Source: a bacterium BMS3Abin02 | GTDB taxonomy: Bacteria > Actinomycetota > Acidimicrobiia > Spongiisociales > UBA4744 | Reading direction: 5' to 3' | DNA: 64,000 nucleotides | Assembly: GCA_002897675.1 (NCBI GenBank) | Contig: BDSU01000040.1 | Coordinates: 5,201 to 69,200 of the forward strand | In this document: positions 27,268 to 27,814 of the stretch, piece after piece | How positions within the stretch are numbered: the stretch's first letter is position 1 | How the letters are laid out: every line of letters begins with the position of its first letter | Program-made: the position numbers and the translations under genes | The notes under the pieces: model-generated | The model's input: the letters and a program-made list of their open reading frames with translations, nothing else | The model's database searches: none | Told to the model about the DNA's origin: nothing

Positions 27268-27793
27268 TTACGCCATTCGTGCAGGTCGGAACTTACCCGA
27301 CAAGGAATTTCGCTCTATTGTGCCCCCATGTCGCCATGAGGATAGGACCATATCTTCGACTCGACAGTCGATGCCGAGTTGGCTGGCGTATGGCCTCTGA
27401 GGATTCCAGGAATCGAGACCGCTCGCTGCGAACCTCTGCAAGTCCGCTCGCTTGACGGTTATCAGTGTGTGCTCTTCGAAGAACGGCTGTGACATCCAGG
27501 AGGTCCGCTCGGTTGCTTCACGAAGAAGCGCACGAGTTTCACTCGATGGGTTTGTCATGTCGGCTGTCCGCGATCTTTGCAGATCGGACACAGCCCTCGC
27601 CGTCGACAAAGCCGACGACCCACTGCTCAATTCCTGACCTTTCCTGCTGATTGTCCGCACCGATCAGATTTTCACTATCCATGTCTCCGCCCTCCGGAGA
27701 GGGTGTGACGTGAATGAGTACTGTCGGATACACGGGGTTTCCAGCATATAGCCAGCTGCAACCCGCGATGTCGCCATCGCGGAGGGCAGACAC
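27268..27793 (-). pseudogene. Decayed LAGLIDADG homing-endonuclease gene (frameshift plus internal deletion of about 150 nt)
   Basis: The N-terminal fragment (27539-27793) reads ...GADNQQERSGIEQWVVGFVDGEGCVRS then stops. The C-terminal homology (LLREATERTSWMSQPFFEEHTLITVKRADLQRF) continues in another frame (27268-27660). The middle third of the protein is missing. Confidence 0.55.
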
Positions 27794-27814
27794 TCTTGCA
27801 CGAAGAGTGCTTCT
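27315..27814 (-). mobile_element. Group I intron (500 nt) in 23S rRNA at the classical L1931 site (CCUAAGGU^AGCGAAAUUCC), with a degenerate LAGLIDADG gene
   Basis: The exon junction is exact. The 5' exon ends in U and the intron ends in G. Core elements R (CCUCAGAGGCCAUACG) and S (AAGAUAUGGUCCUA) are present. The 5' region shares about 60 nt with the first intron (...GAGAGGGTRTGAC...GAGTAC...TTCCAGCATATAGCC). Confidence 0.7.

Follow-up and report, generated by a model that had tools for sequence, protein, structure and literature searches.

The 23S ribosomal RNA (rRNA) gene of bacterium BMS3Abin02 (assembly GCA_002897675.1, contig BDSU01000040.1) carries, directly after position U1931 by Escherichia coli numbering, a 500-nucleotide (nt) insert which is very likely a group I self-splicing intron that has retained its ribozyme while its endonuclease gene decays, and which would stand at the degenerating stage of the homing cycle. 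Coordinates throughout are those of the window, by which we mean the whole 64,000-nt stretch of DNA analysed (contig positions 5,201 to 69,200, forward strand), and the insert is read from its minus strand. This reading is built on the position of the insert, its membership of a family of introns at the same site, the conservation of its RNA structure and the disruption of its gene relative to an intact sister copy, all of which are observed directly. The element is of an already-known kind and its mechanism is not unusual, the novelty being its occurrence in an uncultured actinobacteria-like lineage. It is of small import in itself, and is best seen as a clear case of an endonuclease gene in decay within a still constrained ribozyme, at a classical rRNA site.

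27315..27814, minus strand: group I intron L1931, 500 nt (from the sequence, an Rfam match, E. coli numbering, and family alignment with covariation)

Insertion site and boundaries

The rRNA operon occupies the minus strand of the window (16S 30129-31658, 23S 25623-29932, 5S 25444-25560) within a 265-kb contig with unique flanks, and is presumably single-copy and hence essential. Its 23S gene measures 4310 nt against the 2925 positions of the model, the excess length being made up by two inserts, and without these it scores 2672 bits across the full length of the model. The insert treated here runs exactly from 27814 to 27315, with minus-strand junctions that read ...ACGGTCCTAAGGT then AGAAGC...CACAATAG then AGCGAAATTCC (in a longer reading, ...AACGGTCCTAAGGT then AGAAGCACTC...GGGGGCACAATAG then AGCGAAATTCCTTG). 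Its flanks were mapped onto an annotated E. coli 23S copy (2902 nt, running 1-2 nt behind conventional numbering), and the same mapping and offset recovers the classical sites 1923, 1951 and 2593. By this numbering the 5' splice site lies directly after U1931, the exon U at 27815, and the junction falls between 1931 and 1932, as is characteristic of the L1931 class and as the original prediction had placed it. At the other end the terminal G (omega-G) is 27315, a column at least 90% conserved in the family and one expected of a group I intron; this G and the U before the insert are (nearly) invariant in the family alignment. Site 1931 lies within the functionally essential H69-H71 region of the ribosome. 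It is also a classical group I site (PMC1995217).

Six public assemblies, GCA_002923235.1 (bacterium BMS3Abin02) and GCA_011040105.1 among them, have the insert with 100% identity, and it is therefore no accident of assembly. Five of them hold it in full and the sixth (L012), whose contig starts inside the intron, has only its last 77 nt; all six also carry HE1, the endonuclease gene of the neighbouring insert. NCBI taxonomy lists the source simply under 'unclassified Bacteria', and the host can be placed near the Acidimicrobiia on the strength of 16S identity, which reaches 92% to a metagenome-assembled genome (MAG) of that class.

Structure and covariation of the ribozyme

Relatives were found by scanning a single genome from each species for a group I S element with the site-1931 3' exon 15-45 nt behind it, a pattern matched in at least 120 species. 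Among the matches listed, 46 introns are clearly of the same family as that of the window, their hosts being mostly MAGs labelled Acidimicrobiia or Actinomycetota. These 46 and the window copy were aligned with 12 nt of exon per side, and a structure model was drawn up by combining the window sequence, the output of RNAalifold and visual comparison. Run on the core, RNAalifold recovered P1, P2, P3, P4, P5, P6, P8 and P9; the P7 pseudoknot was not recovered in that run and was added by hand. The elements of the model in the window are as follows.

27785..27817, minus strand: P1 and guide, exon GGU and intron AGA (27817-27812) with UCUGCC (27790-27785)
27809-27791, minus strand: P1 extension hairpin CACUCUU/AAGAGUG with conserved CGUGC loop; stem covaries
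27763..27782, minus strand: P2 hairpin CCGCGAU-GGCGAC-AUCGCGG; compensatory change in 7 of 7 pairs
27756-27751 (5' strand) with 27387-27382 (P3'), minus strand: P3; compensatory change in 4 of 6 pairs, 99.6% of cells paired
27745-27741 (5' strand) with 27650-27646 (P4', inside the GADNQQ codons), minus strand: P4; invariant
27655..27737, minus strand: P5 and extended P5a-P5c arm; P5 invariant, P5a and P5b covary
27644-27643 with 27402-27401, minus strand: P6; invariant
27636-27626 with 27417-27407, minus strand: P6a, 11 bp, CAGGAAUUGAG/CUCGAUUCCUG; compensatory change in 10 of 11 pairs
27397-27391 with 27350-27345, minus strand: P7 pseudoknot, G+GGCCA with UGGUCC (R and S elements); invariant
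27379-27359, minus strand: P8 hairpin; compensatory change in 7 of 8 pairs
27324..27341, minus strand: P9 hairpin CCUCAU-GGCGAC-AUGGGG; compensatory change in 5 of 6 pairs

Over the 47 aligned sequences this model places standard pairs in 87.7% of cells, against 36-48% in controls whose partners were slid by 1-3 columns. Compensatory change is seen in 60 of the 90 pairs, where the slid controls give 24-41; both partners are altered in 438 cells, as against 71-142 in those controls; and none of 500 shuffles attained the observed values of pairing or covariation. The covarying helices are P1, P2, P3, P5a/b, P6a, P8 and P9, with variants in the P5a/P5b arm such as CCGA/UCGG against CCGG/CCGG, CCAC/GUGG and CUCG/CGAG. 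A P3-P9 core with the P3/P7 pseudoknot, R and S elements and covariation is what defines a group I intron, and the original prediction, which had recognised in the sequence a 500-nt insert that follows a U, ends in G and carries R (CUCAGAGGCCAUACG) and S (AAGAUAUGGUCC), is borne out in each of these respects: R and S pair as P7, and the assignment to group I is secured by the family covariation and by members free of an open reading frame (ORF), which exceed the Rfam threshold. The P6a stem encloses loop L6, the site of the body of the endonuclease gene, and P9 is followed by GCACAAUAG, ending in the terminal G of the intron. The core has 140 columns conserved at 90% or more, and the window copy differs in three of them, two of which make up a compensatory replacement of a G-C by an A-U pair in P5a. 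The pattern is that of a ribozyme under constraint, which very probably still splices.

The splice sites fit the same picture. U1931 (27815) forms a wobble pair in P1 with the G at intron position 28 (27787), and this U-G, the mark of a group I 5' splice site, is invariant in 47 of 47 sequences. All P1 pairs are standard in the window and those flanking the U-G covary, intron position +2 and its partner being G-C in 30 sequences and A-U in 14. The guide CU (CU or UU in the family) is also able to form P10 with A1932 G1933 in the 3' exon, and the sharing of guide nucleotides between P1 and P10 explains why intron and 3' exon both start with AG. In the proposed reaction the primary transcript would fold into the P1-P9 core, and an external guanosine bound at P7 would attack the phosphodiester after U1931, held as the U-G wobble in P1 (GGU/AGA with UCUGCC). 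The freed 3'-OH of U1931 would then attack after the terminal G (27315), with the short P10 (CU with A1932 G1933) aligning the 3' exon, and ligation of the exons would restore the H69-H71 region with the junction GGU-AGCG, GGUCCUAAGGU-AGCGAAAUUCC.

The loops of P2 (27769-27774) and P9 (27330-27335) are, in the window, the same hexanucleotide GGCGAC. Most relatives have GGCGAC, GGUGAC or AGUGAU in the P2 loop and GGCGAC or AGCGAU in that of P9, and the P9 of the second intron of the window, after U2604, also carries a GGCGAC loop. This conservation suggests a tertiary contact.

Decay of the endonuclease gene

Introns of the L1931 family are typically larger than that of the window. Among the matches listed, 40 of the 46 relatives measure 700-720 nt and are full-length (about 705 nt, with a cut-off of at least 695 nt), the others being 638, 566, 379, 347, 318 and 282 nt long. 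When the reading frame is counted from the aligned start codon, 33 of these 40 full-length introns have a frame of at least 165 codons and seven are interrupted despite their full length. When intact, the protein is about 175 residues long with one LAGLIDADG motif, and the solved structures that it matches best are single domains from the I-OnuI group and small enzymes of the homodimer type.

The closest intron among the matches listed belongs to a sister organism, here L040 (CBEVHI010000003.1, MAG SRR13309659_concoct_16), whose 16S is 98.6% identical to that of the window and whose 23S exons are 97.9% (exon 1), 99.1% (exon 2) and 94.6% (exon 3, 3' of the L2604 site) identical. Its L1931 intron is 707 nt long, with a core 88% identical to that of the window and the same helices, and holds an intact 175-codon endonuclease gene; its 23S has no intron at L2604. 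Vertical descent of the L1931 intron in the two organisms appears likely, and since the gene is intact in L040 its decay would have taken place on the short branch to the window organism. A scan of metagenomes for a closer relative, or for a same-species allele with an intact gene, yielded four members of the subclade (638-708 nt), none closer than L040. We rejected one further contig, the syntenic L004, as an intron-less close relative: its 1931 junction is uninterrupted, but the identity of its 23S to that of the window is 73-82% upstream of the site and 98-99% downstream. The contig is probably chimeric at a conserved stretch near 1931, and was therefore not used as evidence for presence or absence. 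Comparison of species at L1931 offers homologous introns in relatives, L040 included, the sole intron-less case being this chimeric-looking one.

Against the L040 protein the window gene is a pseudogene of the LAGLIDADG_1 family, broken by two large deletions, three small frameshifting indels and a premature stop, as judged from the following features.

27380..27682, minus strand: single-motif LAGLIDADG endonuclease pseudogene (tblastn against the L040 protein, frame tracking, ORF list)
27577/27576, minus strand: junction of deletion 1, -120 nt, after intron position 238 (alignment with intact relatives)
27551-27550, minus strand: +2 nt, near intron position 264 (frame tracking against full-length relatives)
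27514, minus strand: +1 nt, intron position 301 (frame tracking against full-length relatives)
27487, minus strand: -2 nt, after intron position 328 (frame tracking against full-length relatives)
27428/27427, minus strand: junction of deletion 2, -88 nt, after intron position 387 (frame tracking against full-length relatives)

The homologous start codon is the ATG at 27682-27680, inside the P5b stem, and the frame that it opens runs for 47 codons, about 31 of them homologous, to a first in-frame stop (TGA 27541-27539) reached after the shift caused by the +2 insertion. The motif region ...WVVGFVDGEGC (27682-27590) is in frame +1, HRVKLVRFFVKQ (27548-27513) in frame +3 and PFFEEHTLITVKRADLQRFA (27486-27427) in frame +2, and the tail SRFLESSEAIRQP (27418-27380), which overlaps P6a', P7 and P3', is again in frame +1. 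The corresponding tblastn matches to the L040 protein cover residues 1-31 (84% identity, E 8e-18), residues 85-96 in frame +3, residues 106-125 in frame +2 (75% identity, E 1e-7) and residues 155-170 in frame +1. Deletion 1 lies directly behind the LAGLIDADG motif and takes out about 40 codons, which correspond approximately to residues 36-75 of the intact protein, a part that in this fold carries the first DNA-binding beta-strands; deletion 2 removes about 29 codons (residues 126-154, approximately). On balance 207 nt are lost, and all five indels lie inside the P6a loop (L6), none in the core. A functional gene of LAGLIDADG_1 (PF00961) would show an uninterrupted ORF over the domain of about 100 residues and a significant Pfam match; here the frame is broken and a Pfam scan of the ORF fragments in the insert found no domain, so that the remnant is recognisable only against intact homologues.

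In its outline the original prediction of a decayed LAGLIDADG gene at a late stage of the homing cycle agrees with this: the ribozyme is kept, and the gene is intact in L040 and in the 33 full-length relatives counted above among the matches listed. Its details need revision. The N-terminal fragment of about 84 codons that it described begins at an upstream GTG, the homologous ATG giving 47, and the loss of about 150 nt from the middle resolves into two deletions (120 and 88 nt) with small indels, 207 nt net. C-terminal homology in another frame is found at residues 106-125, whereas the similarity over NPQRxYA reflects nucleotide conservation of the ribozyme core.

The last point follows from the way in which gene and ribozyme are interleaved. 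The GADNQQER codons supply P5 and P4 with their 3' strands and P6 with its 5' strand, and the last codons of the intact L1931 ORF traverse P6a', J6/7, P7 and P3' to finish in the loop of P8. Codons of the endonuclease thus overlap core strands, and some of what looks like protein similarity between insert and HE1 (GADNQQ, and especially NPQRxYA) is therefore conservation of the RNA core. The overlap of ORF and core falls at 27646-27682 and 27380-27418 in the L1931 intron and at 26007-26070 in the L2604 intron, and the homologous P7 core is read in different frames, as SRFLESSEAIRQP in the L1931 enzymes and as QNPQRLYAEH in that of L2604. ORFs that reach into the ribozyme core are known from cyanobacterial rRNA introns, the worked example being at L1917 (PMC1995217).

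Four short relatives show where such decay leads. L106 (282 nt), L100 (318 nt), L122 (347 nt) and L131 (379 nt) share the site and core of the window intron and have lost nearly all coding sequence, so that L6 is short, whereas the window keeps about 300 nt of recognisable remnant; their Rfam scores, 51.7-63.3 bits, exceed the gathering score of 50. They are later stages of the same decay series, and the family as a whole shows every stage from intact gene to ORF-less intron, graded from 282 to about 705 nt in dozens of Acidimicrobiia and Actinomycetota MAGs. The pair formed by the window and L040 adds a view of the rate of endonuclease decay on a short timescale, five indels having accumulated over a 16S divergence of 1.4%.

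In the model of Goddard and Burt, as it is cited in PMC1995217, selfish endonuclease genes pass through a homing cycle of invasion, fixation, degeneration and loss. As in that model, the ribozyme is kept while the gene gathers deletions and frameshifts, and related hosts carry between them intact, frameshifted, shortened and ORF-less forms; the combination found here, of a conserved ribozyme, a disrupted gene and close relatives whose gene at this site is intact, is that of the degenerating stage. Fixation and later loss of the intron, which the model also covers, lie outside the population sample, which consists of six identical assemblies, and we infer past homing activity and fixation in the population. 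The intron would once have held, mainly in its P6 loop, a gene for a single-motif (homodimeric) LAGLIDADG homing endonuclease of about 175 residues, which would have cut intron-less ribosomal DNA near 1931 and so driven copying of the intron by double-strand-break repair; in the window lineage the gene is now dead, with every ribozyme helix preserved.

Bacterial L1931 introns with single-motif LAGLIDADG genes running into the ribozyme core have been described before (PMC1995217), and a comparison by description shows that they share with the window family the insertion after U1931, a complex P5 region and an ORF that extends from a peripheral loop into the core. They are of similar size (654-700 nt, against about 705 nt for full-length members here) and encode proteins of 143-167 residues against about 175. 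The differences are a clear hairpin in the interval between P1 and P3, where the published Synechococcus L1931 model is described without P2 (PMC1995217), the host, which here is an uncultured actinobacteria-like MAG lineage, and the loss of 207 nt of the gene. For annotation, it should be noted that this lineage has a 23S gene of 4.3 kb, whose 47-codon ORF is a pseudogene fragment.

Alternative explanations and related introns

Several points weigh against the reading of the insert as a vertically inherited intron with a working ribozyme. The Rfam model Intron_gpI (RF00028) matches it over its full length (E 7e-7), but the score of 33.6 bits does not reach the gathering score of 50, because the alignment has to absorb a 234-nt insertion in the P6 loop. 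Only three exon nucleotides take part in P1, and P4, P5, P6 and P7 are invariant in the family and therefore contribute no evidence from covariation. The window copy has a standard pair at all 90 positions, a figure inflated for this row by the derivation of the structure in part from the window sequence, although the compensatory counts are independent of it. Splicing is deduced from sequence and structure. Finally, the intron cores of the window and L040 are 88% identical where the exons 5' of L2604 are 98-99% identical, so descent may not have been strictly vertical. Pressed to their conclusion, the sub-threshold Rfam score and the short P1 with its three exon base pairs could mean that the ribozyme is dead too, leaving a non-splicing relic in an operon that is a pseudogene or depends on a trans-acting factor. 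This we consider very unlikely: 90 of 90 family-supported pairs are intact, two of the three differences at the 140 conserved core columns are compensatory, the five indels all fall in L6 and spare the core, the remaining 23S scores 2672 bits full-length, and the operon sits in a 265-kb contig with unique flanks, as a single-copy essential operon presumably would.

It is extremely unlikely that the insert is instead an intervening sequence excised by ribonuclease III (RNase III), leaving a fragmented 23S rRNA and no spliced intron; such sequences do occur in bacterial 23S genes, and the related contig L004 has one with flanking inverted repeats, but the insert has no such repeats, has a covarying group I core with a U-G at its 5' junction and a terminal G, and lies in the essential H69-H71 region at a classical group I site. 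That it is an artefact or chimera of assembly comes to mind because the source is a MAG, rRNA regions are prone to chimeric assembly and L004 itself seems chimeric near the same site, yet the chance of this is vanishingly small when the 500 nt and their flanks are 100% identical across assemblies from several samples and pipelines, and a homologous intron occupies the same site in L040. A group I intron with a dying gene leaves the question of whether the 47-codon remnant, or another fragment, still functions as a small maturase-like or regulatory peptide. It still has the ancestral ATG start and the LAGLIDADG motif, and several assemblies annotate it as a gene; against this, only about 31 residues are homologous, no Pfam domain is found, deletion 1 (120 nt, about 40 codons) presumably removes the first DNA-binding beta-strands, and the conserved N-terminal codons coincide with the ribozyme strands P5', P4' and P6, so that their conservation is explained at the RNA level. 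We hold such a function to be highly improbable.

The second insert of the 23S gene is a paralogous group I intron.

25914..26642, minus strand: paralogous group I intron after U2604 of the same 23S (from the sequence and E. coli mapping)

It has an intact ORF of 179 amino acids (26007-26546), the LAGLIDADG_1 endonuclease HE1, a junction GAGACAGU then UCGGUC that lies 11 nt downstream of the classical 2593 site, and a P1 of 8 bp (GAGACAGU/GCUGUCUC). Its ribozyme core is related to that of the L1931 intron (76% identity over 116 nt, with the segments GGCTATATGCTGGAA and GGTGCGGACAATCAGCAGG identical in both), and like the full-length L1931 relatives it encodes a homologous single-motif endonuclease; it differs in site and guide sequence, in an extra P9 extension, in its intact gene and in the frame in which the P7 core is read. 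The protein collection holds 746 homologues of HE1 at E<=0.001, and HE1 is 42% identical to the intact L1931 endonuclease. The intact copy about 700 nt away to which the original prediction pointed is therefore intact indeed, but is a paralogue in a separate intron and no copy. Alignment of the remnant to HE1 does reveal the expected similarity (residues 1-28 in frame +1, E 5e-7; residues 103-122 in frame +2, E 0.01). As a reference for mapping the deletions, HE1 proved misleading, being a 42% paralogue whose NPQRLYA match consists of P7 nucleotides in the wrong frame, and the L040 protein was used in its place.

Window and L040 are in reciprocal states, L040 (569-594, 1253-1959) having an intact L1931 gene and an empty L2604 site, and the window a decayed L1931 gene and an occupied L2604. 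There is a small chance, which we rate as remote, that the L1931 intron relies on HE1 in trans, as a splicing helper (maturase) or even for mobility, and that the recent arrival of this paralogue permitted decay of the L1931 gene; if so, the two introns of one 23S gene would be functionally coupled. A literature search for 'L2604' introns by that name returned nothing relevant, although insertions with LAGLIDADG_1 genes are documented at 1917, 1931, 1952, 2593, 2604 and 2657 in bacteria of the candidate phyla radiation (PMC11270868).

Related introns also occur together in other 23S genes. One such gene, on the metagenomic contig L001, has three group I introns, at approximately 2236-2478, 2508-3246 and 3902-4607. 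The first is ORF-less, lies at L1923, has P1 AACCGU/GCGGUU and shares the core of the window L1931 lineage, the second lies at L1951 with a 199-residue LAGLIDADG gene, and the third at L2604 with a 169-residue gene. Together with the introns of the window they place the same ribozyme lineage at no fewer than three rRNA sites, and the related introns at L1923, L1931 and L2604 could be used for studies of the homing cycle and of endonuclease retargeting. In L100, positions 961-1217 hold a second ORF-less group I intron (Rfam 66.8 bits) in the same 23S as the 318-nt L1931 intron. L004 has, at 1405-1715, an insertion of about 300 nt in 23S domain IV with an 87-residue GIY-YIG ORF; 16-nt inverted repeats (CCCGCACCTATTTTAG/CTAAAATAGGTGCGGG) stand on either side of the insertion, which in this resembles an intervening sequence of the RNase III type and not an intron. 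Elsewhere in the window, and unrelated to the L1931 intron, a flavin mononucleotide (FMN) riboswitch aptamer is found on the minus strand at 49531-49648 (Rfam 106.4 bits).

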